A stretch of 60,422 bases of DNA, counting the filler, from Globobulimina sp. (taxonomy: Eukaryota), in the NCBI GenBank assembly GCA_003354225.1. It is 14 parts of 14 records of this genome, joined end to end, with 100 filler letters (N's around TTAATTAATTAA, not from the genome) between each part and the next. Parts side by side here need not be neighbours in the genome. Positions count along the whole stretch, not along the records: positions 51,886 to 56,104 come from PIVH01001454.1; 13 more parts are not named here. The stretch is one strand, 5' to 3'. The translations under genes were made by a program, and so were the position numbers. This document shows positions 4,229-60,422 of this stretch, one piece after another (position 1 is the stretch's first letter; each line of letters starts with the position of its first letter). The notes beneath the pieces are model-generated. The model searched no databases. It saw nothing but the letters and a program-made list of their open reading frames with translations, and was not told where the DNA came from.

Positions 4229-4328
4229 NNNNNNNNNNNNNNNNNNNNNNNNNNNNNNNNNNNNNNNNNNNNTTAATTAATTAANNNNNNNNNNNNNNNN
4301 NNNNNNNNNNNNNNNNNNNNNNNNNNNN
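4229..4328. other. Artificial 100-bp contig spacer N44-TTAATTAATTAA-N44; repeated at 8555, 12881, 17206, 21530, 25854, 30177, 34500, 38823, 43146, 47466, 51786 and 56105
   Basis: Identical spacer 13 times, with stops in all six frames; intervening contig lengths never increase along the window. Confidence 0.98.
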
Positions 4329-8554: not shown

Positions 8555-8654
8555 NNNNNNNNNNNNNNNNNNNNNNNNNNNNNNNNNNNNNNNNNNNNTT
8601 AATTAATTAANNNNNNNNNNNNNNNNNNNNNNNNNNNNNNNNNNNNNNNNNNNN

Positions 8655-17205: not shown

Positions 17206-17450
17206 NNNNNNNNNNNNNNNNNNNNNNNNNNNNNNNNNNNNNNNNNNNNTTAATTAATTAANNNNNNNNNNNNNNNNNNNNNNNNNNNNNNNNNNNNNNN
17301 NNNNNTTGAAAATTTTGAGAATAATACTGAAATTGAAATCCACGAAGACAATAGTTATTTAATTGAAGATAGTGATACTGAATCTGAAATTGATTTTTTG
17401 ATGACTCTTGCCTAATTATTTTTTTTAAAAACAATCTTTAATAATGGACT

Positions 17451-17489
17451 TATTTTATCCAGTTTTTAACAAAAAAAATGGATAAAATA
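17451..17489. terminator. AT-rich hairpin between convergent genes
   Basis: TATTTTATCCA (17451-61) pairs perfectly with TGGATAAAATA (17479-89); lies between stops at 17415(+) and 17503(-). Confidence 0.6.
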
Positions 17490-17502
17490 TTTCAAAATTA
17501 AT

Positions 17503-18894
17503 TTATATAGTATTCATTTTTCTAATAACAACCTCCAATACTTCAGTTGTATCTTCTTCTTTATAATCTTTCATAACTCCAGTTCTAACAATCTCGCCAT
17601 TCTCGTCAACTTTTACCTCACGATTACCCCATTTTCTATTATCTAATGAAAATATAGCCCATAACTTTAATAAAGCACCAAAATATGTTGATAAAATGAA
17701 AATAGGAATATATACGATAAATCTATAATTGTATTCAAAACTTGGTCTAAAATAAGTAAAATAAGGTAACATTTTGATCGTTCTTAATACAAAAATATAT
17801 AATAGAGTAATATAAAACAGTTCAAGACTACCAGAAAATAAAGCAATTCCTAATCCAATAAACATGGTAAAAGGTGTTATAAATCTATCAACCATTACAA
17901 TTGCTAAAAATGGATATTTGTACCAGACATTTCTTTCTACACATATTAACTTAAAATCACTTCGGATTGTATTTCTTCCCCATCTTAATAATTGGTAAAA
18001 TAATACTGGTGGATCTTCAAATCTTGTAGAAACATAACAATTACTATTAATTTGATGATACATACAATAGTCTTTTGAATTAATACATAAACGAGTTAAA
18101 AATTTATCATCACCTGATAATTGTTGTTTACCCATAAATTTTTCATTTAAGAAATTTTCTACAAAATCACCTTCATCAAGTAAACTTTTTCTCCAAGCCA
18201 TAGTTCTTCCAGCAACACAAGGAGCACCACCACCAAAAAGTGTTGTTGCTTTAATTTCTAAATATCTTTGAAATAACCTCATATCCATTAAAACTTCATA
18301 AACATTATGACGTTTACCTTTTGACCTACATATTTGTCCTGGTCCAACACCACCAATATTTCTTTTCTTATCATTAAATGGAATTATTAAATTTTCCAAC
18401 ATAGTATCACAGTGCCAAACATCATCATCAATGAACATTATAATATCTGTAGTAGTATTTAAGTATCCAGTTGCTAATGCTCTTCTTTTACCAGGTCTAT
18501 GTTCTGGAATAATTTTAATTACGGGAATATCTAAATCCTTATTTTCTTCTAATACTTCATTCTTTATTGCTAAAACTTCATTTTTACAAGTAATGTCTGG
18601 AACTAAAATAATTTCTTTTGGTTTATTTTTAATCCAAGATACTAAACATATTTTAAAATCTTCTTCTGGCATATAAATTGGTATTATATAAGTTACATCT
18701 TCTTTTGTAAAATTATTATTATTATCATCAAGAATATGTTTAGTTTTATATGGTTTATAAAAAAGACTTGGTAATAATCTTAAAAAAAAGTATACTAATA
18801 TTCTGAAAGTTCCTAATGCTAATGGAAATATAATAAAAATCCCTGCCTCTTTGATGTATGTAAGTGCTGTTTCTAATAATAAAATAGTATCCAT
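17503..18894 (-). CDS. Processive GT2 glycosyltransferase (hyaluronan synthase/NodC/Cps1-like polysaccharide synthase)
   Basis: GKRRAL, FIDDD, SGDDKFLT and QLLRW motifs; N- and C-terminal TM helices; intronless and very AT-rich; likely start MDTILL. Confidence 0.88.
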   Translation of the reverse strand: MDTILLLETALTYIKEAGIFIIFPLALGTFRILVYFFLRLLPSLFYKPYKTKHILDDNNNNFTKEDVTYIIPIYMPEEDFKICLVSWIKNKPKEIILVPDITCKNEVLAIKNEVLEENKDLDIPVIKIIPEHRPGKRRALATGYLNTTTDIIMFIDDDVWHCDTMLENLIIPFNDKKRNIGGVGPGQICRSKGKRHNVYEVLMDMRLFQRYLEIKATTLFGGGAPCVAGRTMAWRKSLLDEGDFVENFLNEKFMGKQQLSGDDKFLTRLCINSKDYCMYHQINSNCYVSTRFEDPPVLFYQLLRWGRNTIRSDFKLICVERNVWYKYPFLAIVMVDRFITPFTMFIGLGIALFSGSLELFYITLLYIFVLRTIKMLPYFTYFRPSFEYNYRFIVYIPIFILSTYFGALLKLWAIFSLDNRKWGNREVKVDENGEIVRTGVMKDYKEEDTTEVLEVVIRKMNTI

Positions 18895-18960
18895 ATATAT
18901 ATATATTATAATATTCAAAATCATTTTTAATATTATAATTTTTTATTTTTATTTATTTAA

Positions 18961-19920
18961 TTATTTTTTTAAATCACTAAAAGTCATTAAATTTGGACTT
19001 TCATCCATTTTAATTTGTATTTCTTTATTTTCTGTAATCCATTTATTTACTTCTTCTGTTCCATTCAAAAAATCTGTAATACGAGCATCTACTTTATATT
19101 CAACAGCCATGTTAATTAATTCAGGACAATCTTTTGGTAAGCAAACACCACCATAAGGAGCTCCGACTCTAATACCATATTGTGGATTAAGGAATGATTC
19201 AGCAGTACAAGAAACATTATTTAAAACGTGTTGAGGACAAATATTAAAATCATGTTTTTTATTTATATTATTTATTAATCCATAAATAGAATTCGCAAAT
19301 GAAATTCTTAAACCATTCGCATAATTATGAATACATTTATGTATTTCAGCTTCTTCTAAACTCATAATTCTTAAATGTTTTTCATTATTATTAACAAATT
19401 TCAATAACATATTACTCATTCTTTTTTTTACGTCAGTGTCTTCTTTTTTATAACCGAATAAAACTTTCCAAGGGTGTAAAGCATCTTGTTCCGCAGTAAC
19501 TGCTCTTAAAAACTCGGGTTGAAATGCGATATTAAACTTTTTATCTGTGTATTTTTGTAAAAGTTTTTCATATTCTCTTGTTAATCCTGGGTAAACAGTA
19601 CTTCTCATTACTACAATTATTTCTTTTTTTGAAATTTCAATTAATTTTGCGACGGTATTAATTGTGCTCCAAACATAATCCATTGATAAACGTTTCTTCT
19701 CTTTATTTAATGGAGTAGGAACTGAAATTAAAATAATACTAATATCAACTAAATCATTTAGATTATCATTTATATGCCTACATTCAATTCCTTCACTATT
19801 TACATTTTTAATAATTTCTGGTATAACATCTAAAGCAATTACTGGGAATCCGTGATATTTATATCCTTTGATATTTGCTTTACCAACAACACCTGTTCCG
19901 ATTTGTAAGATATGTTCCAT
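18961..19920 (-). CDS. ugd: UDP-glucose/GDP-mannose 6-dehydrogenase family, short form without the C-terminal domain
   Basis: IGTGVVG, SVPTP, RSTVYPG, PEFLR and YGGVCLPKD (catalytic Cys). Confidence 0.88.
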   Translation of the reverse strand: MEHILQIGTGVVGKANIKGYKYHGFPVIALDVIPEIIKNVNSEGIECRHINDNLNDLVDISIILISVPTPLNKEKKRLSMDYVWSTINTVAKLIEISKKEIIVVMRSTVYPGLTREYEKLLQKYTDKKFNIAFQPEFLRAVTAEQDALHPWKVLFGYKKEDTDVKKRMSNMLLKFVNNNEKHLRIMSLEEAEIHKCIHNYANGLRISFANSIYGLINNINKKHDFNICPQHVLNNVSCTAESFLNPQYGIRVGAPYGGVCLPKDCPELINMAVEYKVDARITDFLNGTEEVNKWITENKEIQIKMDESPNLMTFSDLKK

Positions 19921-19954
19921 TGTTTTATATATAATGCATATATAAAAAATTTAA

Positions 19955-20177
19955 CTTAATTAAATTTAATTCATTTGATAAATGGAATGATTTTGTGTAT
20001 ATATAAAAAAAATTTAACTTAATTAAATTTAATTCATTTGATAAATGGAATGATTTTGTGTATATATATATATATTAAACGATCTATATTGTTATAATAC
20101 TTAATTTAATTTAATTCATTTGATAAATAGAATGATTTGTGTATATATATATTAAACGATCTATATTGTTATAATAC
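19955..20177. repeat. Three imperfect tandem copies of a ~50-bp intergenic unit; one duplication includes the stop codon of the upstream gene
   Basis: CTTAATTAAATTTAATTCATTTGATAAATGGAATGATTTTGTGTATATATA-like units start at 19955, 20018 and 20100; TATATTAAACGATCTATATTGTTATAATAC occurs at 20071 and 20148. Confidence 0.9.
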
Positions 20178-21529
20178 AAGGAGGTTGATTCGTATCACAA
20201 CTAATTCCAGATTTAATAATATTTCCACCACAACAACCATCACTACCACCTGGTAATAAACCACAATCTGTTCCTCCACATCGTTTATTTCCATTAACAT
20301 CAACACAAGTTGATAAACAACATTTATTCCAACTTTTAATTCCATTAATACAATTGGGGTCACCAATGATAGGTGATTGTGTAGGATAATACGTAGGAGT
20401 TTGATATATAGTAGGTTGTAATGTAGGTTGTAATGTAGGTTCTAATGTAGGTTCTAATATTGTAGGGGGTATTGTAGGTTCTAATGTAGGAGATAATGTA
20501 GGAATTGTCTCAGATAATGGTAAACTTAATATACATTTTTCTTTATTTATAATTTCATAATAATCTTTAGAAATATAATTATATTCACATTTCGGTGATA
20601 AGGAATGATATTGATCTGTATCTGTATATATTCTAAACTTATCTAAATATAATTTATTTTTTCCATTATAATAATCTCCATTTTCTATAGTAAGATTATG
20701 AACACCTGGGTGTAATGATAAAACATCAACATAATATGTAGAATAAACGATGGTTCCAACATCATATATCTGTTCACCATTATAAATTGTTTCTTTAATA
20801 CCATCTATATATACTGAAAAATCAAGACTGTGTTCATTATAAATAATCATTTCAATTGAAAAATGTCCTAATTTTTTTGTTATAAATTGTGATGATATTG
20901 AATCAAATGAGTATGACAATCTTAAATAACCATAACTTGTACTTGACGCAAGTTCTGTTCTTTTAATATCTATATTTTCGGTTATTGTATTCTCTATAAT
21001 ATAATTTTCTTCAAATTGCCACCAACCTGTCCAATCTAATACGTTATAATTATCTATTAAATTAACTGAATCATAATACCACATATGTTGTTTATAATCA
21101 TCATCATATTTTATTGTTTGTGTTCTTACATCTGAACCGAATTCTTCTGAATGTTTATTTATAGCTCTTCCATATTGAAAATATTCTTTTACAATTGATA
21201 GTGTATCTATATTATAATTACCATATGGATACGCAAATGTTTTGACAACACAACCAGTTATAGTTGATTCTAATACTTCTTTTGCTCCTATAATTTCATC
21301 ATATTGTTCATCATAAGTTAATGTTGTTAAATCTACGTGAGTTTTTGTATGAGAACCAAGTTCGTGCCCTTCGTCGTATAGATATTGGATTTCTTCCCAA
21401 TTCATATTATAAACTAATGATCCAACCCAATCAGTATTTATATACCAAGTCCCTTTAATGCCATATTTTTCAAGATATGGTAAAATAAAATCAAATTGTG
21501 ATTGTATACTATCATCTATTGTTATTACA
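20161..21529 (-). CDS. CE4/NodB polysaccharide deacetylase with beta-rich middle region, PT linker and Cys-rich C-terminal module; 5'-partial
   Basis: Frame stays open to the contig end and gives ITIDD; also HELGSHTKTH and FAYPYG; (EPTL/QPTL)n linker. Confidence 0.88.
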
Positions 21530-31516: not shown

Positions 31517-32617
31517 TTAGGCGTTAAGATTTTGCAATATTTGTAAAATCAATTGTTTTGTATCTTCATTTGGATTGACTTTCTGTAAATTCCTGATCTG
31601 ACTATGTAATAATTCCTGGTTAGATTCTAAATCATCAATACGTTTTTCCTTTTCTTCTAGCTCTGTGATTTCTTTTTGTTGTTTTTCAATCAGTAATCTC
31701 TGGCGTTCTGTAGGATCTACAGTAAGCTCAGTAATTGACTTTACAAATTCTGTAAAACATTCCTCCCTGGTTGGTTGAAGATAAACACCATCAAGGCCCC
31801 TTTTGTGAGCCATTAATTTTTCTGCAATATTGGAATTAATGTCATTGTCAATTTTCAAAATCGTATTGAATCTTTTCCTAAATCCATAGAATAATGCCTT
31901 GTCAAATCTGTGGCCTACCTTAGTTCTTACAATACCAGAATTTTCTACTACTGTTTCCATTAATTTTCTAACAGCTCTATATGGAATCGGTTTTCCTTTT
32001 GATATGAATAATGGTGAGTCATTTGTTAGAAATTCGCCATTTTCTTTTCTATCTTTGATATAGTCATCAAATGCCTCTACACATTCAGGAGTCCAAAAGG
32101 TCCAATATTCCTCTTTAGATCCTTTGTAGATTAGAACAGCTTTGCAGCCATGTTGCATATCTACAATATCACCCAATGTCAGTATTGGATCATGTAAGGC
32201 ATTAGGCCTGCCACCAGTTGATACAAAGAGATGGATCAAAAATTTTGTCTTAAGGTTGGTAGTGGATTTTAACATTTTTAGGATTTCTTCAGTAGTGTAT
32301 GGCTTGTTTCCCCCTGCTTTTTTGTTGTTAGCTGGTAGCATACGCCTGATAATCTTCTTTGGATATAGAATCTCATTCATATCCAGGAATAGCTCTATGG
32401 CTGAAAGATAGCTGTTACAACTAGGATAAGTCAAATGATTAATTGATTGCACGTATTTTGCGAGTAAATCCTTGATTTCTTCATAAGTCATTTTCTTAAA
32501 CTCATTGTATTCTGTTACACCTGAAAATTCTCTAAATTTTTCAAGAGCTCGGGTATAGTTTATTTTAGTGGCATCTGTCTTTATTGCAGCTAGAAAGTTA
32601 TCATAACAAGTTTCCAT
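31517..32617 (-). CDS. int: Tyrosine recombinase/integrase with C-terminal coiled coil
   Basis: STGGRPNAL (R), YKGSK (K), YGFRKRF (HxxR with H to Y), LMAH...LDGVY (H, Y); N-terminal SAM-like core-binding region. Confidence 0.9.
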   Translation of the reverse strand: METCYDNFLAAIKTDATKINYTRALEKFREFSGVTEYNEFKKMTYEEIKDLLAKYVQSINHLTYPSCNSYLSAIELFLDMNEILYPKKIIRRMLPANNKKAGGNKPYTTEEILKMLKSTTNLKTKFLIHLFVSTGGRPNALHDPILTLGDIVDMQHGCKAVLIYKGSKEEYWTFWTPECVEAFDDYIKDRKENGEFLTNDSPLFISKGKPIPYRAVRKLMETVVENSGIVRTKVGHRFDKALFYGFRKRFNTILKIDNDINSNIAEKLMAHKRGLDGVYLQPTREECFTEFVKSITELTVDPTERQRLLIEKQQKEITELEEKEKRIDDLESNQELLHSQIRNLQKVNPNEDTKQLILQILQNLNA

Positions 32618-32644
32618 GGTATTCTATTATTTTACTTACTATTA

Positions 32645-42947: not shown

Positions 42948-43245
42948 TATGACATAAGTGTGACTTGTTTTGTTCGTTTACAATTAAGGTATTATTCAGT
43001 AGGTAATCTAAATTAGTGTATATAATAAGTATCTTTTTGCTGATCACATAATGGGCTGTTGTTTGGACGGTAACAGTCATGGTGTAAACTGGGGGAAAGT
43101 ATGCAGATGATATCGATAATAAATCAAATGATTCGTTACAACCTTNNNNNNNNNNNNNNNNNNNNNNNNNNNNNNNNNNNNNNNNNNNNTTAATTAATTA
43201 ANNNNNNNNNNNNNNNNNNNNNNNNNNNNNNNNNNNNNNNNNNNN

Positions 43246-45854
43246 TTCTTTTTTATCTTTCTTGCCACCACCCGATGCGTTTTGTTTACTGCTTAATTGT
43301 TTGGTTTGTTTGGCATCCAATGAGGTCATAGTCGCAGACATTACGCGCGAGGATAAACCAAACATTCCTTGCGATCTCTCTCGGAACTTCTGGTCCATCA
43401 TATCCATCACATGTAAGCGCAAATCATTCTCAATTGCTGTACATAAAGGATTTATAATCTCCGCATTCAACATTACTAAAATATCTTCTTTGTACACTTG
43501 GAATATTCGATTCGAATCTGCTTCGTGTTTGTTGGATTTCAACATAGGGACAACGTCATTTAAGTAGGCAAATATGCTCGACAGCCGGTATGCTTGCGTC
43601 GGATTGTCGTAGATATCTCGCAAGATCAGCGGGATAAAATCAATGGACCAATAAAAAAATGAAGTATCCGTAGTACGGCAGAGATATTTTTGCCACGAAC
43701 TGACCACATCTAATTTCCATAGTCTATAGCGTACCTCATCAATATCTTGATCGCTCATCATTCCTTTCAAAGTGGCCACCGATGACGCTACATTTATAAC
43801 CACCACACGCGATAATGTCGGAGCAGTGTTCAATAATTCGACACAAAGCGTTAACGCAGCTAAACAATCTAATTTAGCAGAAGTGGGACGCGGTTCAGAA
43901 TCAATTCTCTTTCGTAACGGTTCAAAGATATGCTGCAAACTAAAAGCAATCACAGTTAACATATACGACACGTCGGCCGATAACCGTTTGGATCGCCGAT
44001 GAAAAGCGTCTTCAATCGATTTCAATAACTCTGCCAATGTAGTCAGTGAGCGTAGATTGGATTTCTTGAAATTTATTCCCAAATCTAAATGTAGCCATAA
44101 CGTGGTAGTCAGTAAGTTATGTATTTGCGTGGCCAAAATCAAGCCATCAATCAATAAACGCGTTTGAAATTTAAGCGTGGTTTGAATATCACGAATTTTT
44201 GATTTTATTTCCGCATCCCATTTAATTAGCCATTGACACATTTTCATGTACAAAGTTTGCACGGTTGCGTTGAATTTTTTGTCTAAGTTTAATAAGTATA
44301 TACGTCGGCTAGTATCAATTTTGTGATAGGGCGGATCTAAGGTTTTGCCCGAATAGGGAATATGTTCACGCATAAAATCAGCCAAATACCAGACTGCGCG
44401 ACCGGTTAAATGGACTAAGGGTATTTCGTGCTGTACGCTCCAGACCGATTTATAAAAAGTCTTGTCCTGCGCTGCAGAGTAAGTGAATATTTTATTGGTT
44501 AAGCCATACAAACTGAATAAATCCACCACTGAGTGTCGATGATGAATCTCTTTGCCTTTTAACTCAGATTTTAATCGGCGTTGAATATATTTTAAATATC
44601 GATCAATCTCTTCAAATAATGCACGATTAGCAGACACCACACGCATTTGTTGAATCATTGCCTTGCTCATTTTTAATGCTTCTTCCTTGACTTGATTCTC
44701 TTGTAATATTTGTTCGTATTGATGGGATAAATGGGAAGGCACTTTACTAAAAACGCCAAATTTCTGCGTGATGCAATTTGCATACATCTTACTGTTTAAT
44801 ATTACGTCTTCTAACTGCATTATTTGGTGTTGAAAATCATTTAGGTCGTCTGCATTAAATCCCATACTGTATATTATATATATAATATAATATGTATTAT
44901 TCATATATTATGCGATTATGCGTTCATACCTATCAGGGGTAGTCCTCATATATCCAATCATTTTTTTATAATTTTCCCAGCCATCCTTTAATTCCTCATT
45001 TTCCCTGACAATAATATCTAGTGTCACCAATATAGTGAGTGTTTGTGATAAGCGATCTAATAAATAGTCCATACTCACATTCTTATAGGTTGATATATAT
45101 AATTTCTGTTTTGGGTGATATAAATATGCCAACTGTTCTATTGTGTTCTTTACGACGGCATTCACTCTCAACAGGAAATTACATAATTCCTGTAAAAATG
45201 GTAAAAACCTTGCTATTTGCATCTCCATTGTATTGTCATTATCCATGTTGTCGGTATTACCATTGTTATCTATGTCTGTGTCTGTGTCTGTGGATATAGC
45301 TCCATTTGCATGCGTATCACCGTTGCCGTAGGCATCCGTTCGTTCCTTTTCATCGTTTGTTTGTGTGGATGTATCATTTGGTATTATACCAAACATATTT
45401 AGTGGATGATAATATTTGCTTCTTGCAATAACTTGTAATTGTATCATTTCTTGGCATAATGCACTAAAGACAGTGGTTATTTTATTAAATACAGGATTAT
45501 CTGTTCTGTCTTCCACTAAAAATACTGGATTTAATACGTTTTCATATGGTGCTACATCTAATGATAAGAAGTCGTCGCGTGAGTCCCATGTGTCTGTCAT
45601 GTTGCGTTCACTGAATTTCTCTTCAAGTTGGTGCAAATTGGAGCAATGTTCCTCTATAAATGATTCCATTCGGTTCAATAGATCATCGCTTGGATTTTCT
45701 ATGTAATTGTTTAGTTTTTTATTTAGACAAGAAAATGTATTATATATTTGTTTCAACCTTTAAGATCTCCTCCAAAAAAGTCATTCAATTTTTGTTGGCT
45801 TTGATCTACTGGAAGAAAATTGGACGGTGGATCGCCTGGCGCTTCTGCTGCCAT
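43246..45854 (-). CDS. WASHC4: WASH complex subunit 4 (SWIP/KIAA1033), 3'-partial; introns 45699-45757 and 44867-44929
   Basis: FNKITTVFSALCQE, QIARFLPFLQEL, LVTLDII, PLCTAIENDLRLH; GT-AG splices give a continuous frame from ATG 45854. Confidence 0.88.
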
Positions 45855-50720: not shown

Positions 50721-52184
50721 TGAATATGATATGATATTATATTAAGTTTATATACATAATTATTTTGATGAAAGGTTTGTCATTTTTTTTGCAGAATATA
50801 GCAAATTAGATATCATAGATATTTACTAAACAAAACATCCTTCGCCTGTTTGGGCGTCCAATGTATTGAATAAAACAAATGATAGTATGGATAAACATGT
50901 GATTTGAGAACCCATGTATGTCTGCTTTGTGTTTTGATTGTTTTTGAGTGGGAAGTAAAGGTTGCACTGAAACAAATGATATTTGTGAAAAATAGCCATT
51001 GAAATAATACATTAAAAACAAAAATGCCCAGAATCGAATTAAGTTTATTCTGTCATTACAACAACGCGGTGCTTTATTCTTTGTAATGTATAAATATCCA
51101 ACAAACATTGAATGAATAGCAACAAATACACCTCTTCCAATTAAATATTCCCGACCAAGAAATACATCCACTTTGAAGAATCGTCCATTTTTGTACGTGA
51201 ACAAAATAAATGACAACCAATGCACAGGAAATGTATCACCACAACAAATACCATTACAAATGGTAGTACCCCATCAATACCAACATGTCATGTGCATGCA
51301 AATCAAACTCAGCTTCTTCGTCTGTTCAGTCCGGCAGTAGGGATGACCACACTGACAGTTTCGTCATTTTTATGATAATAAACTCAATTTTGATAATTGA
51401 CATTCTTTGCATGTAAACAAATTTTGATGGCGGTAAACAATAAGTATAAATCCGGTGTTATTGCGCTAATAATAATATGTGATGATAGCTTAAAGAAAGC
51501 AGCTTATGAACATGATTTGGGTTCAAATCCCAATCATCACTTTTATTATTTTTATTTTTATTTTATTCTAAAGCAGTTGATAAAAACAACAAAAATTCAA
51601 ATGTCACTTTTTTTTTTTTATCTTCATTTAAATTTTACAAATTATTATTCGTGTTTCGTTCCATCCAGGATACATTTCAAGAATTTCTTCATCCGTATCA
51701 AAATAATTTGAATTAAATAATAATGGTTCCTCAATATTTGATGGCGGATTGGCATCACGAACATGTAAACATTGATTATATTCATNNNNNNNNNNNNNNN
51801 NNNNNNNNNNNNNNNNNNNNNNNNNNNNNTTAATTAATTAANNNNNNNNNNNNNNNNNNNNNNNNNNNNNNNNNNNNNNNNNNNNGGTTTAAAAGCAATC
51901 TCAAAAACAACAGGCGATTTTAGACAAAAAAGCAAAAAAAAAGCAAACAGAAATCACAGATATAGCCATTGGACGTCGTGTGGAGCATATTGGGATTGAT
52001 TAAAATTGGATTTAAAATTAAAAAAATCAACATTCACCTCAAAACCATTGCAATCACCATTAATAATCCTAACAATAAAATCAAAACGTATATTCATTAT
52101 TATATTTCCATTTTAGTGTTACTCTTAAAGTTTTTGATTTTTATAATCAAAACTTCAAGCTTTTTCTTTTCGCCTTTACAATAA

Positions 52185-52223
52185 AAGTGTGAATCAGTCC
52201 AAATTGGACGAAACTAGTCACTT
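52185..52223 (+). ncRNA. Minimal type I hammerhead ribozyme candidate with variant core
   Basis: AAGT-GTGAATCA-GTCCA(AAT)TGGAC-GAA-ACTAGT-C-ACTT gives stem I, core, stem II, GAAA, palindromic stem III and a GUC cleavage triplet. Confidence 0.65.
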
Positions 52224-52467
52224 ATTTAATAAATTTAATTGTTTTATTATTCCGTTGCTGAGTGATATCTCGTAGCCAAACTTGATCCCTACTTTCGTAT
52301 ATCTACCCGTGTTGGTTTACGCCTCCCCTCTTATCCATTCGTTGGAAATTACCTCAACAATTACTATTTGGAATTTACATTTCAAATTACCTGAATCATC
52401 AAAGATTTAACCATCAAATTAACTACCTTTGAATTTTAAACATTTTTAAATTTCATTGTCATCAAAC

Positions 52468-53733
52468 ATGTACAAAATACAATTTAATCAAAACAGAAAT
52501 AACAACAACAACAACAACAAAAATAATAATAATGATAATGAGCAAATTCAAGAAATTGATATTTTACGTGAATTGCCACGAAAACGTTCGAGGCAAACAT
52601 TTGCATCAAATCAAATTCATACAAATCCGGCTCAGTTATCCAATGAAAATACAATTATTATTGATAAATTCAAGCAATTTTTAGAGCGCGATATTGTTAT
52701 TAATGACAAATTAATCGACAACAAATTGCATCCAATTTTACAAGTCGCCATGAAATATATTTCGAAATTTCAAGCTAAGCGCGTAGCCGCCGTCAAATAT
52801 GTCGATAAAATATCAAATGCCCTCAATACGCATACTGTGGAAAATGCGTTTAAAGGCAAATACGATAAATATCCATACTGGACAAGCTTTAAAAACAACA
52901 GATTCCAATTATCGCATCCTTTGATACAAGAAAAATTGAACAAGGCATTACATAAAATGAACTATGATCAAAATATCGAAGTATTAAAAGTTGTGCAATC
53001 TCATTTATTCGAAATTAATACCGTTTATATGGGAGATTTAAAAGTAATTATAAATCACGCCATTAATGAGCTGAAAAAATGGTGTTGGTTACAATGCGAA
53101 TTCTCGACACAGAAAAAAACGCATAATTACTCTATTAATGTCTCCTTAGACGATGACGATCAGTCAATCATTGATAATCATATGAAAAATAAATATGGTG
53201 ATACTTATCAATTGAATCAAAAGCGTATGTTTTTAGAGAATGTAAGCAATAATATTCAATTTCATATGAATAAAAACAGTGATATTTACATTAATCCTTC
53301 GATTGACCCAATTTACATTAAAGGCGCAAACAATTTAATTAAATTCAAAAATAATAACAATAAAAAAGATCCTCTCAAAAAACATCCAGTCAAAAACCGT
53401 AAACCGAAGAAAAACAAATACAAAAACAACCAGAATTATAATAATAAAAATAATAAATTTGGTAAAAACACAAAAAACATTTTTACTAAAAATTTCAAAA
53501 ACGGTAAAAATGGTAAAAACGGCAGAAACGGTAAAAACGGTAAAAACAAGAAATCATTCAAAAATAAAAAACATTTCAGTGAATTGTCCGACAAACAGAA
53601 ATTCGGAAATTATAACATGGATTTTATTAATTTAGCACCGTCATTACGTCCATTAGGCATTCGCTTAAATGATAACTCCGAAAATGTAATCATTGAATCG
53701 CAATCCGATGATGATATGTCGAACAATCCATGA
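52468..53733 (+). CDS. Retroelement ORF1 with a helical region and a K/N-rich basic tail with (NGK)n repeats
   Basis: 421-aa ORF from the first ATG; same frame as the RT, separated by one TGA. Confidence 0.7.
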   Translation: MYKIQFNQNRNNNNNNNKNNNNDNEQIQEIDILRELPRKRSRQTFASNQIHTNPAQLSNENTIIIDKFKQFLERDIVINDKLIDNKLHPILQVAMKYISKFQAKRVAAVKYVDKISNALNTHTVENAFKGKYDKYPYWTSFKNNRFQLSHPLIQEKLNKALHKMNYDQNIEVLKVVQSHLFEINTVYMGDLKVIINHAINELKKWCWLQCEFSTQKKTHNYSINVSLDDDDQSIIDNHMKNKYGDTYQLNQKRMFLENVSNNIQFHMNKNSDIYINPSIDPIYIKGANNLIKFKNNNNKKDPLKKHPVKNRKPKKNKYKNNQNYNNKNNKFGKNTKNIFTKNFKNGKNGKNGRNGKNGKNKKSFKNKKHFSELSDKQKFGNYNMDFINLAPSLRPLGIRLNDNSENVIIESQSDDDMSNNP

Positions 53734-55809
53734 CAATCAAACCATGTTCGTTTGTCAAGATCCGGATTATATAAATCACGGACTCCTCCTCCTCAATCTC
53801 GTAATAAATACAAGGAATACAGAAAAATGAAGCGCGTGTTTCCTAAATCTGTATTTAACAAAACCGAGTATCAAACAATTCCGTACATTGTAAAGGTTAT
53901 AGCTCACAAAGGCCGTGGATACACATTAGATAATCCATGCATTGGTACTTGGGCTAAAAACCTAAAACGCTCAAAAACAAGTTTCAAAGCGAGATTAACC
54001 AAATCATTTAACACAATTTATGATAATAAGAGAAACGCTTTGGATGAACTAAAAAATGCATATAATTTTTTAGACATCAAACTAAAATCACATATTTTTA
54101 ACAAAAAAGCCAAATGGTTTTTTAATAAGAATTATTATGTGATTCGTCAAAATACCACCATCGCAGTACGCGGCTTATTATTTCAGTTAAAAAAGAATAA
54201 ATTTACATTGATTGAATCAGATAAAAAGATGGGAAGTATTTATATCGATATCTGTGTGGTCGATGACGACGTATTAAAGTTTTTAAACAGTAAACAATTT
54301 GTACCAATTTATGCAACGGAACAAGCAATATCTAAACAAATAGCTATTTCGTCAAAATCGCTCATAAATGATCATTATAATCATTTTAAGCATAAATGGA
54401 ACAATGACAGAGTTTTTAATGTCTGGCGCAAAATGTATGACAGTGACAAAGTATTAAATTTGCCGAAAATCCGTCCTATGATGAAACTGCATAAACCGGG
54501 CTGGCGTTTTATTTTTAATCCCGGCAATTTTTATACATTATTTATGTCGTTCGAAGCAGGAAATATTTGCGAAGATATTTTATTACTATTTCAAGAAAAA
54601 AACAATTTGCATATTGTCCTAAATAACTCATTTGAACTCATGAGCTGTTACAAGAAAATCAATAATCAAAATGATAAATTTTTGAATACCGATCGATTTT
54701 TCTATGATTCTGATGTTGTATCAATGTACGATTCAATGATTATTGATCAATGCATTGAAATATTGAATTATATACAAACAAAATTAGATTATAATCAATT
54801 TAAATTTGATTTTTTGATTGACACATTATTCTATTTTAGAGACAATACATACATTAAATACAAAGATTGGATCAGAAAAATGGTGATAGGTTTAGGAACT
54901 GGGAATTCTCATTCCGGTCCTTTAGCAAATCTATGTTTATACGGATATGAAGTTAAGAATTTAAGCGTGTTTTTGCACGCAATCAACGCCGAAACATTTT
55001 GTGATATTACTTTACGTAAACGGTACATCGATGATAAAAAAACTATTATCGATGTCGATGATGATCAATTTGCAGACGACGTTGTAAAATTAGATTATTT
55101 AAACAAAATATCCATTGCTTTAAATGACATATATCCCATTAACTTAGTATTAAAAACCAAATTTGCAAAACGTGCTATTTATTTAGATACATATTCAATT
55201 ATTTGCCATCAAACAAATCGAATCGTATCATTTATGCATGAAAAGCCATTAAATTTGCATATTAATCTACATTTTCATTCAAATAATCCATTTAATCAAA
55301 AAGAAAGTATTTTTTACTCATTTTTATTCAGAAGTATCTGTTTAAATGATAGCGTCGTAAAACATAAAGGTTTTACGAAAAAATTGATAAAAAGAATGAA
55401 AAATAGAGATTTTCCACCTGCCGTTATCAGGAAAATACTCTCAAATCGAAAATTGCCTCAATATATAAATAGAGATAAATACTTAGAAAAATTAGAAAAG
55501 AATAGACTGGAAAAGTATTATCGCAAATTATTAAAAGTATACAATGAAAATATTTGGGGCCAAGAATCTAAGTTTATTAACAACGAAAAATTAGAATATA
55601 TCAACAATTTATACATTGATAATGAAGAAATAGATGACGTAAAAACGGTATATTTTAAAAAAGTATACCAACAGTTATTTGATGACGACAATCGATACAG
55701 AGAAATATTAAAACAATTTAAAGAATATTTGCCATCAGATTTCGCAGAAAATATTAAGTTATCTATCTGCAATCAAACAGGAGATAAATTAATGAGATAT
55801 TTAAACTAA
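53734..55809 (+). CDS. Penelope-like reverse transcriptase
   Basis: ESDKKMG, MKLHKPG, DVVSMYD (A), GLGTGNSHSGPLANL (B), RYIDD (C), YLD, and EKPLN...LHFHSNNP...KESI...R (PLE thumb). Confidence 0.9.
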   Translation, partial: QSNHVRLSRSGLYKSRTPPPQSRNKYKEYRKMKRVFPKSVFNKTEYQTIPYIVKVIAHKGRGYTLDNPCIGTWAKNLKRSKTSFKARLTKSFNTIYDNKRNALDELKNAYNFLDIKLKSHIFNKKAKWFFNKNYYVIRQNTTIAVRGLLFQLKKNKFTLIESDKKMGSIYIDICVVDDDVLKFLNSKQFVPIYATEQAISKQIAISSKSLINDHYNHFKHKWNNDRVFNVWRKMYDSDKVLNLPKIRPMMKLHKPGWRFIFNPGNFYTLFMSFEAGNICEDILLLFQEKNNLHIVLNNSFELMSCYKKINNQNDKFLNTDRFFYDSDVVSMYDSMIIDQCIEILNYIQTKLDYNQFKFDFLIDTLFYFRDNTYIKYKDWIRKMVIGLGTGNSHSGPLANLCLYGYEVKNLSVFLHAINAETFCDITLRKRYIDDKKTIIDVDDDQFADDVVKLDYLNKISIALNDIYPINLVLKTKFAKRAIYLDTYSIICHQTNRIVSFMHEKPLNLHINLHFHSNNPFNQKESIFYSFLFRSICLNDSVVKHKGFTKKLIKRMKNRDFPPAVIRKILSNRKLPQYINRDKYLEKLEKNRLEKYYRKLLKVYNENIWGQESKFINNEKLEYINNLYIDNEEIDDVKTVYFKKVYQQLFDDDNRYREILKQFKEYLPSDFAENIKLSICNQTGDKLMRYLN

Positions 55810-56453
55810 GTTTTTATTTTTTCATTTCTATCTTTATTCTTTTACCTTTTTACTTTCAATTTTGTCTTTTTGACACATTATAAAATTCACTTTTTGTGTC
55901 TTTTTATTTTATAATGAATTGATTAACGAATACCTTTTTTGTTTACAATTTTTATTTATATATTTTTTAATTTGTTTTATAATATATACATAGCAAAAAT
56001 ATCTTTCGTTATTATAAATATTATCAATCATAGTTTTATTATATTTTTATTTTTGTGTTTTGTTTTGATTGGTTATATTTTTTCTTTTATGTTTCCATTT
56101 TAGTNNNNNNNNNNNNNNNNNNNNNNNNNNNNNNNNNNNNNNNNNNNNTTAATTAATTAANNNNNNNNNNNNNNNNNNNNNNNNNNNNNNNNNNNNNNNN
56201 NNNNAAATACAAAGCAAATATATTTTTGCAAGTGACAAAAAAAATATGTAATAAAGCATATTATTTGTATGGATCGATTTTATATTTTTAATTATTAATA
56301 TATAGCGCCGCCATACCAATATTATAAAACTGCAAGTGGTTATCCACCCAGTTACCCATCACCATATTATACATTCTATGAGGTTCAGTATCCATTTTTT
56401 ATACAGTATATAATTACAATTAATTATGTTTCATTGTTTGTAAATATTATAAG

Positions 56454-57389
56454 CCAACACCAAGTCCAACACAAAATCCTATTCCAGCACCAACAAAAAA
56501 TCCCATTCCAGCAACAAAAAATCCTACGCCAGCACCAACACAAAATCCCATTCCAGCACCAACAAAAAATCCTACTCCAGCACCAACATTAACCCCTTCA
56601 TTTGCTCCATCATTATCTCCATCATTATCACCTACTTTGGCTCCCAGTAATGCCCCATCATTATCTCCGCATTCTACACCCACCAATGTACCGAGTATGC
56701 CACCTACAACTCCATCACTCATAAATACGCTCTATTTCCCCACACAAACCCTTGTCGTGACTGCAGCAAATGATATTGCTGTTGATGATGATATTACAAC
56801 TTCGAATTCAGAAAACATGGATCATGTGGAAGGAGATGCATATGGCAATGTTTTGGAAGACTGGATGTTTATTGGCGGTGGAGGACTGTTTGCAATGTTT
56901 TGTCTGTGCTGTATTCTGATTCTCTTGTTTTGTGTGTGTAGGCGTGTAATGTGGAAGAAAAAAATGTCAAAAATTAAGGATTCATATAATGAGACTACGG
57001 AAATGACGAAAGTAGCTTCCATTTCTAATCAAGCCATTCCAGTGCAGAATAATATTGTCAGTGCCTCCCGATCGGCTGAGGGGAACTCGAATGGCACAAT
57101 GAATATAAGCATGGAGGGGGAAGCTGTCAAAAGTATGAATTCCAATCATGTCTCACCCAAATCGAATGATATATTGATGATGCATGTCATGTCAGGATTG
57201 TCAGCGTTGACTCCAATGGGGGTTGATGTATATGACAATGATGGCAATGCCATAACGCATATGGCATCACAGAATACTGATAGTGTGATTGTGGACAAAT
57301 TTCATGATGGGATTAATGATATGATCATAGAATCAAGTGACGAGAATATAGGTTGTGGCGAAGTTACAATTGGTAAAAAACCGCAATGA
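56454..57389 (+). CDS. Type I membrane protein with mucin-like PT/PS stalk, last exon (5' exons upstream)
   Basis: (PAPTKNP)n and (APSLSP)n repeats, a single TM helix followed by RRVMWKKK, and a cytoplasmic tail. Confidence 0.7.
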   Translation, partial: PTPSPTQNPIPAPTKNPIPATKNPTPAPTQNPIPAPTKNPTPAPTLTPSFAPSLSPSLSPTLAPSNAPSLSPHSTPTNVPSMPPTTPSLINTLYFPTQTLVVTAANDIAVDDDITTSNSENMDHVEGDAYGNVLEDWMFIGGGGLFAMFCLCCILILLFCVCRRVMWKKKMSKIKDSYNETTEMTKVASISNQAIPVQNNIVSASRSAEGNSNGTMNISMEGEAVKSMNSNHVSPKSNDILMMHVMSGLSALTPMGVDVYDNDGNAITHMASQNTDSVIVDKFHDGINDMIIESSDENIGCGEVTIGKKPQ

Positions 57390-57780: not shown

Positions 57781-60422
57781 TATACATTAAATAATAATTT
57801 CACTGTCCGCTGCGCCTTCATTGATTTAGGGGACGGCACCGCATTCATTGGCGCATTGAGCGAATACGTAGCATTAAACAATTCGCAATATCCCACAGCA
57901 CCAATATCATCGTGTGCTCTTTTCAAAGACTGTCCGTTCCACGAAAATGACTTACAAACAGGAGAGTCAATATTATTGTACAGATGGTCAAAAAGCAGGA
58001 TTATGGAATACCGCAACCTTTCATTATCACAATCATTTGATAGCAATTCCTATTTATTAGTGACATGCAATAAAAACTTAACTTTGACTGAGGACTATTT
58101 ATTATTGCCATTTAATGACGATTTTGTTAGCCAGAGTTTTGAAGCACATGTCAGCGGCGGCTGTTATCACGTAAAACATGCAAATATTCGAGGCTATGAA
58201 TGCAAGAATGAAAAGGCGAATTTTTGGAATAGCAATCAACATCATTTTCATTTAGATTCTAGCACTTGTTTTTGTGGTGGATGTTGTTCCTGGAACACTG
58301 ATTCTGTTGCATCCGAAGATAATTTTGGATTTTATTGGGTTGCACAGACTAACCCTTTATTTTCATGTACTTCTACACTGACTTCAACCACAGAGTTAAG
58401 TACATAATTAACACATTCTCTTTGTGTGTACAGTATATATTTATCGATTAAGTTATTGGATCGGAAGCATAATAACATTGCAATTGCTTGACATTGCCGG
58501 AATATGTGAGGTATTACCAACCAAATGGTTCACTGCAAACTCATTAAGTTCACCAACGGAATGGATAGATATTATAAATAATAGCGCAGCAATTGGCAGT
58601 GGCTTAAAGCAGGGGAATAAAGATGGCAATGCCTACGTGTACGGCGGCACAGATTCAACATTAAGTTTACCAGTTTCATTAACAACATTTCCAGGCTATA
58701 CTTTGATCCATGTCTGCAAATATAATGGAGCTGCACAAGGAAGAATACTGGAGGCAACTTCTGTGAATTGGCTGTCTGGTTTCCATGTTGAGGGAATAGG
58801 GTTGGCTTTCCACCAAACCACAGCCACTGACTTGTATCACGATGGCTGGTTGGCATGGCACAATGCATCCGACTACAATGTGGACGAATGGCTGATCAGC
58901 ACTGATCAAATTAATATATATCGCGCCAATTTTGAAGTCATTCCGCCACATTGCTGTCCCGCTGGCAATCCGCCATTCGATAAGATATTATATCCGTTCG
59001 CTGATCCGGGACAGATAACAATTAATAACGGATTGCGAGCGAATTTTGGTGAAACATCTGACTGGGCCTGCAGCGAAATCATAATATTTGAAGATATGGA
59101 GCTTGCCACCAATGAGATACAATGTATTGAGGTGTTATTAGCCGAGAAATATGCATCTAATGTCATACCGAGTGTATGCAATGGTTGTTGGAGTGATTAT
59201 TATGATAATGCGGTCTGGTGTGCTGCGAATAGTTTTGGTTGCCATCCCAATGCGTTATTAGATGGTGATTTAAGTACTGCGTGGAATGCGTGTTGGGGCG
59301 CTGGTTGTTGTCTGTATGAAATTGATTGGGTCGTTTTTGATTTTGGCCAGGCGATAAAATTAAAATTATTTGGTTTGTATGCTTACGGCGATGTTACTCA
59401 TGACATTAAAACATTTGAATTGCAGTACAATAGCAACGGATTAGATTCTTTGTCGTGGATTGCACTCAAACAATGGACTGCTGCGAGTGGTGGAGTCGGA
59501 TGGCAGTATTTTGATATTAATATTACTCAACAAACGAATTATTATCAATATTGGAGATTATATATTACCGAAAGATATTCTAAATACCAAACATATTTAA
59601 ATGAGGTTCATTTTCTCACTGAGAATACAACAAATATCATGCCACAGACTTTATGCCCAACATCAGCACCAACCATAGCACCTTCATTAATGCCTTCGTT
59701 GGCTCCTTCTTTAACTCCTTCAATCGCCCCATCATTAGCACCGAGTATTGCTCCCAGCGTAGCTCCCTCATTAACTCCATCCATTGCTCCTTCGTTGACA
59801 CCTACTTTATCGCCATCATTAGCACCATCCAAAGCACCTTCAATTGCACCGTCATTAACTCCTACGCTGTCTCCTTCGTTGGCACCATCTGTATCTCCAA
59901 CCATCAGTCCAAGTTTTGCCCCATCATTGTCACCAAGTATAGCTCCCAGCGTAGCACCATCATTAAGACCAAGTAGTGCACCAACTTTAGCCCCATCATC
60001 AAATCCTAGTTTATCTCCAAGTATTGCACCCAGTTCAGCTCCCACTATCAGTCCAACTTTAGCGCCATCATTATCACCAAGTATAGCTCCCAGCGTAGCA
60101 CCAACATTAGTACCAACCATTGCGCCTTCATTACCTCCATCATTAGCTCCTACACTGTCACCCTCATTGACACCCACTTTAGCTCCAAGTTTAGCTCCCT
60201 CATCAAATCCTACTTTGTCTCCGAGTATCAGTCCAAGTTTAGCACCATCTGTATCACCTACTTTACCACCAACTGCTGCCCCAATTATCGCACCATCAGC
60301 AGCCCCGTCTTTAGCTACAAACACTCCTTCCAATACACCTTCATTTGCTCCGTCTTTAGCACCAAGTATCGCACCATCATCATTAGCACCTTCGTCGGCT
60401 CCTTCTTTCCCCCCAACCACCG
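57781..60422 (+). CDS. Large cell-surface protein with a Cys-containing module, a ConA/LamG-like lectin, an F5/8C discoidin-like domain and an APSLTP mucin stalk; intron 58395-58452; ends unresolved
   Basis: Splice gives STTDYWIG; frame 58454-60422 is open (YTLIHVCKYNG...NWLSGFH; DGDLSTAWN...WVVFDFG...YWRLYI); absent from the ORF track because it has no stop in the window. Confidence 0.7.
59650..60422 (+). repeat. Coding tetrapeptide repeat array [A/T/S]-P-[S/T]-[L/I/V]
   Basis: 12-bp periodicity (GCNCCNTCNTTA-like) over about 770 bp. Confidence 0.9.

Follow-up and report, generated by a model that had tools for sequence, protein, structure and literature searches.

The stretch of DNA considered here, which we call the window, comprises 60,422 bases of the draft Globobulimina sp. 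assembly GCA_003354225.1, and one of its contigs carries a Penelope-like element (PLE) whose two open reading frames (ORFs) are separated by a single in-frame UGA. The window is a pseudo-molecule of unplaced contigs: 14 of them, ordered by length from 4228 down to 4218 bp, are joined by N44-TTAATTAATTAA-N44 linkers at 4229-4328, 8555-8654 and so on to 56105-56204, the TTAATTAATTAA design being that of a six-frame stop linker. Because the contigs are unrelated and were joined artificially, the neighbouring sequence is uninformative on the element, which stands alone on the thirteenth contig (51886-56104, 4219 bp, record PIVH01001454.1; GC 27.7%, compared with 25-39% in the other contigs). This contig apparently represents one intact, endonuclease-deficient Penelope-like retroelement of about 4 kb, and its intactness is seen in the 1113 codons that run through both ORFs, in the presence of all reverse transcriptase (RT) motifs, and in a C-terminus that is conserved through the last residue.

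The downstream ORF is a real reverse transcriptase of the Penelope-like lineage. It lies on the plus strand, is open from stop to stop over 53734..55809 (691 aa), and from its first ATG to the TAA (53827..55809) it encodes 660 codons and a protein of 78.9 kDa. An exhaustive HMMER scan returned 90 relatives, 38 of them at E values up to 1e-10 and 16 at E values up to 1e-30, the best being 39% identical. The full-length relatives (612-741 aa) align with the query from its first conserved motif, VFNKTEYQTIP (53851-53883, plus strand, starting 8 codons after ATG 53827), to the very last residues, ...YLN. Three catalytic blocks, DSDVVSMYDS, GTGNSHSGPLAN and RYIDD, are conserved across 14 sequences, including the Asp of the first and the DD of the third; we take them to be RT motifs A, B and C, and the alignment of relatives places them on the plus strand at 54706-54735, 54889-54951 and 55021-55035, respectively. 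An AlphaFold model of the RT, built from 53 sequences, reaches a pLDDT (per-residue confidence score) of 92.4 and a pTM of 0.89, and when this model is compared with the PDB by Foldseek, ranks 1-11 are all TERT chains (7lma, 6zdq, 3du5, 7trd and others) from Tetrahymena, Candida, Tribolium and human, followed by Prp8, defence RTs (DRT) and LINE-1 ORF2p. In the Atlas, the clusters that look like this RT have known members mostly from Rotifera.

Profile searches connect the same protein to RTs that carry a GIY-YIG endonuclease. The query RT matches nothing in Pfam at E values up to 1, and no Pfam family is found in its close relatives P0001-P0004, P0012 and P0016; among the 18 of the 90 relatives that were scanned against Pfam, RVT_1 is present in eight distant ones, of which P0077 also has GIY-YIG. 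Profile A1, built from the close family, reaches P0092 (N-terminal GIY-YIG followed by RT) and P0093 (RT followed by C-terminal GIY-YIG) at about 1e-10. A word-indexed protein search with profile A1 gave 5 distant matches and with the RT sequence itself gave nothing, and a sequence search of the PDB produced nothing relevant for either. No GIY-YIG endonuclease is detected by Pfam in the query, and its ORF ends at the C-terminus common to all full-length relatives. The TERT-like fold and the profile links to GIY-YIG RTs, combined with the lack of an endonuclease domain, identify the element as an endonuclease-deficient PLE, in keeping with the label "Penelope-like" that an earlier note on this DNA had given it.

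Upstream of the RT lies ORF1, which extends from ATG 52468 through 421 codons to a TGA (52468..53733, plus strand; the stop-to-stop frame is 52450..53733, 427 aa) and encodes a protein of 49.6 kDa. Its layout consists of a poly-Asn N-terminus, a helical core at about residues 60-210, and a charged, disordered C-terminal part, the latter divided into a basic Lys/Asn-rich region with a pI of 10.9 (residues 291-372) and an acidic tail with a pI of 4.2 (residues 373-421). The AlphaFold model, for which 3 sequences were available, has a low confidence (a pLDDT of 43.9 for the whole protein and of 55-75 within the core) and predicts long helices at residues 89-121 and 151-214. ORF1 has no match in Pfam at E values up to 1 and no usable match in the Atlas, and a word-indexed protein search with residues 60-300 found nothing; homology could be detected only to the N-terminal part of P0016 (phmmer 2.8e-14; BLASTP 29% identity over 122 aa). 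At the DNA level the poly-Asn tract occupies 52468-52560, and the basic region, rich in Asn and Lys, occupies 53340-53575 and includes GKN repeats with a period of 9 nt. Asn-rich inserts have been described in the ORFs of rotifer Penelope elements (PMC3846280).

The two ORFs share one frame, and the junction between them reads ...AAT CCA TGA CAA TCA AAC..., with the TGA at 53731-53733. Translated jointly, they contain one internal stop in 1120 codons, and the distance from ATG 52468 to 55806 is 1113 codons, so that a read-through product would have a mass of about 132 kDa. The first ATG in the RT frame, at 53827, is codon 32, which leaves a spacer of 31 codons (53734..53826, plus strand) that is open in the RT frame and would be translated only if ribosomes read through the stop. 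In all of these respects the earlier note, which had described ORF1 and RT as in frame across one UGA, placed the RT ATG about 31 codons further on, and estimated a fusion of about 1113 aa, agrees with the sequence and with the joint translation, as does its statement that the CAA TCA after the TGA matches the leaky consensus stop-CAR-YYA. This proposed readthrough site, UGA with CAA UCA, occupies 53731..53739 on the plus strand.

To what extent these features could coincide by chance can be expressed in numbers. The chance that ORF1 and RT share a frame is 1 in 3. The probability of 31 stop-free codons is 0.039 at the stop density of the ORFs' own off-frames and 0.20 at that of the untranslated regions (UTRs) of the contig. 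The hexamer CA[AG][CT][CT]A follows 19 of the 6865 stop triplets in the window, both strands counted (0.28%); in the contig as a whole it occurs 20 times among 8428 hexamer positions, and within the two ORFs it makes up 6 of 1112 in-frame codon pairs. Moreover, the spacer scores as coding in the RT frame: its codon-usage log-likelihood of +4.7 lies within the scores of in-frame coding windows of the same length (means 8.5-10.2, standard deviation about 4) and above all off-frame windows, and is reached by 6.5% of 693 UTR windows. Taken together, the shared frame, the open spacer and the hexamer are unlikely to be a chance coincidence.

We propose that programmed UGA readthrough, giving an ORF1-RT fusion of about 132 kDa, is the best explanation of this arrangement, a proposal that is drawn from one copy and that we regard as about equally likely to be right or wrong. 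That readthrough occurs, the rate at which it occurs, and the role of the fusion as the active form are all matters that we infer. Under this proposal ribosomes would scan a single mRNA through a leader that lacks AUG until they reach the start of ORF1, and the majority of them would terminate at UGA 53731 to release the 49.6-kDa ORF1 protein with its helical core and basic tail. A minority would misread the UGA owing to the CAA UCA that follows it, a leaky context of type I, as in tobamoviruses, that would act free of structure; these ribosomes would then cross the disordered 31-codon linker into the RT and yield the fusion at low stoichiometry. Such a scheme would follow the logic of gag-pol expression, and would achieve in frame what a frameshift is described as achieving in some PLEs. 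CARYYA is recognized as the type I readthrough signal and stimulates readthrough at UGA as well (PMC3542737), and a reporter in human cells showed about 15% readthrough at UGA-CARYYA, where each of the six bases contributed and UGA was about as effective as UAG (PMC4132726). Fusion expression also has a precedent in the class, since the legend to Fig. 1 of Craig et al. 2021 (PMC8557442) describes PLEs in which ORF1 is separable from the RT by a frameshift with a pseudoknot; the earlier note had mentioned such a frameshift at this junction for Athena PLEs, and the legend bears it out for PLEs. As to the earlier note's suggestion of low-stoichiometry readthrough, it stands as the mechanism with the best support, seen in this one copy.

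Several observations weigh against this proposal. The leaky motif was picked out post hoc, and the hexamer assayed in PMC4132726 was CAAUUA in human cells, whereas here it is CAAUCA in another host. Frame +1 of the spacer is likewise open (frame +2 has 3 stops), and the probability of an open spacer may be as high as 0.2. The spacer is predicted to be disordered (AlphaFold pLDDT 34-55), and when it is compared with the corresponding stretches of relatives no similarity is detectable (shuffle p 0.23-0.99). RNA structure downstream of the stop is not significant (z -0.7 and -1.3), a result to be set beside the fact that type I sites need none. Searches of the window with tblastn and blastn found the element itself only, which leaves a single copy, and searches of bacterial and archaeal genome contigs (single protein, alignment A4) found no relatives. 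Finally, AUG 53827 has an A at -3 and lies only 8 codons ahead of the first conserved RT motif, and the predicted proteins of relatives begin at a comparable place: all 4 of the 4 close relatives that cover this motif start 12-72 residues ahead of it, while the query frame opens 39 residues ahead. Such starts shortly before the motif suit separate initiation of the RT equally well.

The last of these points, together with the disordered and unconserved spacer, leads directly to an alternative in which the element is composed of two cistrons, ORF1 ending at the UGA and the RT starting separately at AUG 53827, whether by reinitiation, by internal entry, or from a second mRNA that is spliced or internally promoted. 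The shared frame and the hexamer would then be a coincidence or the relic of a fused ancestor. Bicistronic non-LTR (long terminal repeat) elements, for example LINE-1, express ORF2 without fusion. Nevertheless, two cistrons require that a 1-in-3 frame, 31 stop-free codons (0.04-0.2) and a 0.28% hexamer coincide, and the coding score of the spacer in the RT frame is not what a separately initiated RT would call for. A ribosome scanning on from the ORF1 start would meet 31 ATG triplets before it came to AUG 53827, the first ATG of the RT, and leaky scanning is thereby excluded as a route. In addition, P0002, P0003 and P0076 start inside or after the first conserved motif with no AUG ahead of it, although they are possibly truncated. 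On balance we consider separate initiation rather unlikely, although it is the main rival to readthrough.

Relatives also bear on whether the stop is a normal part of the element. A distant relative, P0068, consists of one polypeptide that aligns collinearly with the read-through product from the ORF1 basic region into the RT (BLASTP 2e-8), and its N-terminus has an ORF1 motif in common with the query. Since P0068 is fused, an ORF1-RT fusion would appear to be one of the forms used by the broader family. The same protein can be cited for a different view, namely that ORF1 and RT ordinarily make up one uninterrupted frame in this family and that the copy examined here is dead or mis-assembled, with a single nonsense change at 53731. 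Most rotifer PLE copies are reported to bear in-frame stops or frameshifts (PMC3846280), and the element resides on an orphan 4.2-kb contig of a draft assembly. However, a nonsense change would have had to fall within the linker of about 90 codons out of 1113, and also to create a context with a frequency of 0.28%, and no further lesion is found in the 1113 codons. Furthermore, none of the 16 relatives at E values up to 1e-30 is longer than 741 aa, and no close relative is fused. The lack of fused close relatives and the starts near the motif make the barrier between ORF1 and RT look like a family trait rather than a private lesion, and we regard a nonsense or assembly defect as quite improbable. 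P0016 also touches both ORFs: it has an ORF1-like N-terminus and an RT part that hardly differs from P0003, and it lacks the junction, with the basic region and the RT N-terminus absent. This protein is a gene-model artefact, made by bridging a stop or frameshift, or else a genuine splice variant of a sister family.

Splicing could also join the ORFs in the element itself, if a short intron spanned the stop and its removal fused both ORFs in every transcript. Introns can be retained in PLEs, and the legend to Fig. 1 of PMC8557442 refers to "conserved introns". The window contains four other in-frame ORF-stop-ORF pairs, and at the two whose sequence was inspected, a WASH4 gene (contig 11) and an unnamed ORF (contig 12), a short AT-rich intron of about 60 nt with a GTA... 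donor would account for the interruption. At the ORF1-RT junction, a search for GT...AG introns of 35-300 nt that include the stop and keep the frame gives 15 candidates, all with weak donors (GTCGAA, GTCCGA, GTCATT, GTCCAT, GTAATC). The best donor, GTAATC at 53686, combined with the nearest acceptor at 53759, would remove 74 nt and break the frame, and the junction region is not AT-rich, unlike the host introns. An intron here seems to us highly improbable.

The WASH4 locus (43201-45759, minus strand) encodes the host WASH complex subunit 4, with Pfam profile positions 2-205 matched in one ORF and 206-572 in the next, and the in-frame TAA that splits the two ORFs lies inside an AT-rich intron of about 63 nt (GTATGA...ACAG). 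Hence very short introns can mimic an ORF-stop-ORF arrangement in the Globobulimina sp. assembly.

A further possibility is that the UGA is read as selenocysteine, or that the organism reads UGA as sense. Naiad PLEs with in-frame UGAs and selenocysteine insertion sequence (SECIS) elements have been published (PMC8557442), as the earlier note had mentioned. That note had suggested a search of 55810-56104 for a SECIS; a scan of the whole contig with Rfam at E values up to 10 revealed no SECIS and no other relevant family, a single chance-level sRNA match being its only result. The UGA lies in an unalignable linker and not at a conserved Cys, and the 1113 codons contain this one TGA against 10 TGG and 12 Cys codons. 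Reassignment of UGA would also be at odds with the 5 in-frame ORF-stop-ORF cases of the window, which comprise two TAA, one TAG and two TGA, and with the long ORFs that the host reads in the standard code, for example those of a 1378-aa G-alpha and a 947-aa GH31 protein. We find recoding of this kind barely credible. A variant genetic code as such was considered and rejected, given that the interrupting stops are mixed, the two that were inspected fit short introns, and the host genes read normally.

If programmed readthrough is accepted for the Globobulimina element, it may extend beyond this copy. We put forward, as a tentative idea that is somewhat more probably wrong than right, that a whole lineage of endonuclease-deficient PLEs with TERT-like RTs, probably in rotifers, makes its RT only as a fusion by way of a structure-independent UGA-CAR-YYA signal. 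This would be the first case of stop-codon readthrough coupling in the PLE class, evolved as an in-frame alternative to the frameshift of its relatives, and it would place a recoding signal of tobamovirus type in an animal retrotransposon; a literature search for PLEs and stop-codon readthrough found no report, though the primary descriptions of Athena lay outside this search. Retroviruses and LTR elements set the ratio of gag to pol by frameshifting or readthrough, while for PLEs, the sister group of telomerase, frameshifting is the only such device mentioned in the text examined; frameshift and readthrough would thus prove interchangeable in this class too. The signal would be a compact and easily assayed one in a retroelement, consisting of six bases without structure. 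Readthrough coupling would also mean that the RT works while attached to ORF1, a point of relevance to the way in which PLEs without an endonuclease assemble on their RNA. For annotation, the consequence would be that a PLE in which a stop separates ORF1 from RT should not automatically be called a dead copy.

The putative 5' UTR (52118..52467, plus strand) is free of ATG, and the only ATG in 51886-52470 is the ORF1 start; indeed, the 582 nt before ORF1 (51886-52467) contain 0 ATG triplets on the plus strand, where about 10 are predicted from base composition. The absence of ATG over this distance fits a long scanned leader. The first 232 nt of the contig (51886..52117, plus strand), bounded by the contig limit and also without ATG, are flank or the tail of another element; they are unlike the element's 3' UTR except for their final 18-29 nt, and their lack of ATG suggests that they are perhaps transcribed together with the element. 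These nucleotides end in an 18-nt copy of the element's 3' terminus (52100..52117, plus strand), which is identical to 56087-56104 at 17 of 18 positions, has an exact part of 13 nt (TTTCCATTTTAGT), and stands 350 nt before ORF1. The contig stops exactly at ...TTATGTTTCCATTTTAGT, that is, at the repeat. The repeat could represent a PLE-type "tail", the terminus of a copy further upstream, or a duplicated target site, and the true 3' end of the element may lie beyond the end of the contig. The 3' UTR extends from 55810 to the contig end at 56104 (plus strand).

With regard to its place among PLEs, endonuclease-deficient members have been characterized as having two ORFs, no endonuclease and a length of 4-6 kb (PMC6431247), a description that suits the element. 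No hammerhead ribozyme was found in the contig, either by Rfam at E values up to 10 or as a CUGANGA core on either strand, and no telomere-type repeats (ACACCC, TCACCC, CCCTAA or similar) are present in it. The element would accordingly be described as an endonuclease-deficient PLE that appears Athena-like by layout, its membership in Athena being unproven.

Other contigs of the window hold features of separate interest. Contig 5 (17306-21529, GC 25.4%) has three same-strand ORFs for bacterial-type polysaccharide enzymes, namely a polysaccharide deacetylase, a UDP-glucose/GDP-mannose dehydrogenase and a family 2 glycosyltransferase, which may reflect horizontal acquisition or contamination. 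A 368-aa ORF at 31520-32623 (minus strand) has a Phage_integrase (tyrosine recombinase) domain with an E value of 1.2e-10 and may belong to a DIRS- or Crypton-type element. The last contig contains long arrays of 12-nt and 24-nt periodic repeats at 56451-56685 and 59643-60408, which lie within a 670-aa open frame matching PT-repeat and F5/8 type C domains.

The element can be compared with several known systems. It resembles Athena and other endonuclease-deficient PLEs of rotifers, fungi and protists in having two ORFs, an RT without GIY-YIG, a length of about 4 kb and a TERT-like RT fold. Athena has an upstream coiled-coil ORF1, and the ORF1 product here is predicted, with low confidence, to be helical. 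Where those elements can have a frameshift and pseudoknot at the junction, however, the Globobulimina element is in frame across a UGA, and the 3' hammerhead ribozyme and reverse-complement telomeric repeats of Athena have no counterpart in its contig. Naiad selenoprotein PLEs share with it an in-frame UGA that requires recoding, but their UGAs replace conserved cysteines and are accompanied by a SECIS in the 3' UTR (PMC8557442), whereas here the UGA stands between two domains and the search for a SECIS was negative. LINE-1-type bicistronic expression is alike in that ORF1 and an RT ORF are carried on one mRNA with a short spacer between them, yet the LINE-1 model needs neither a shared frame nor a leaky context.

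Two viral systems offer parallels for programmed readthrough. As in gammaretrovirus gag-pol, a structural protein would be fused to an RT through low-rate suppression of one in-frame stop; gammaretroviruses use UAG-G and a pseudoknot for this purpose (PMC3542737, Table 5), whereas the Globobulimina junction has no significant structure, and the element encodes no protease and is of an unrelated type. Type I readthrough of the tobamovirus kind is alike in that the stop is followed directly by CAA UCA, in that no downstream structure is needed, and in that a polymerase is the downstream product. The usual stop in type I readthrough is UAG and its setting is an RNA virus; here, the same hexamer follows a UGA, and the setting is a cellular retrotransposon.

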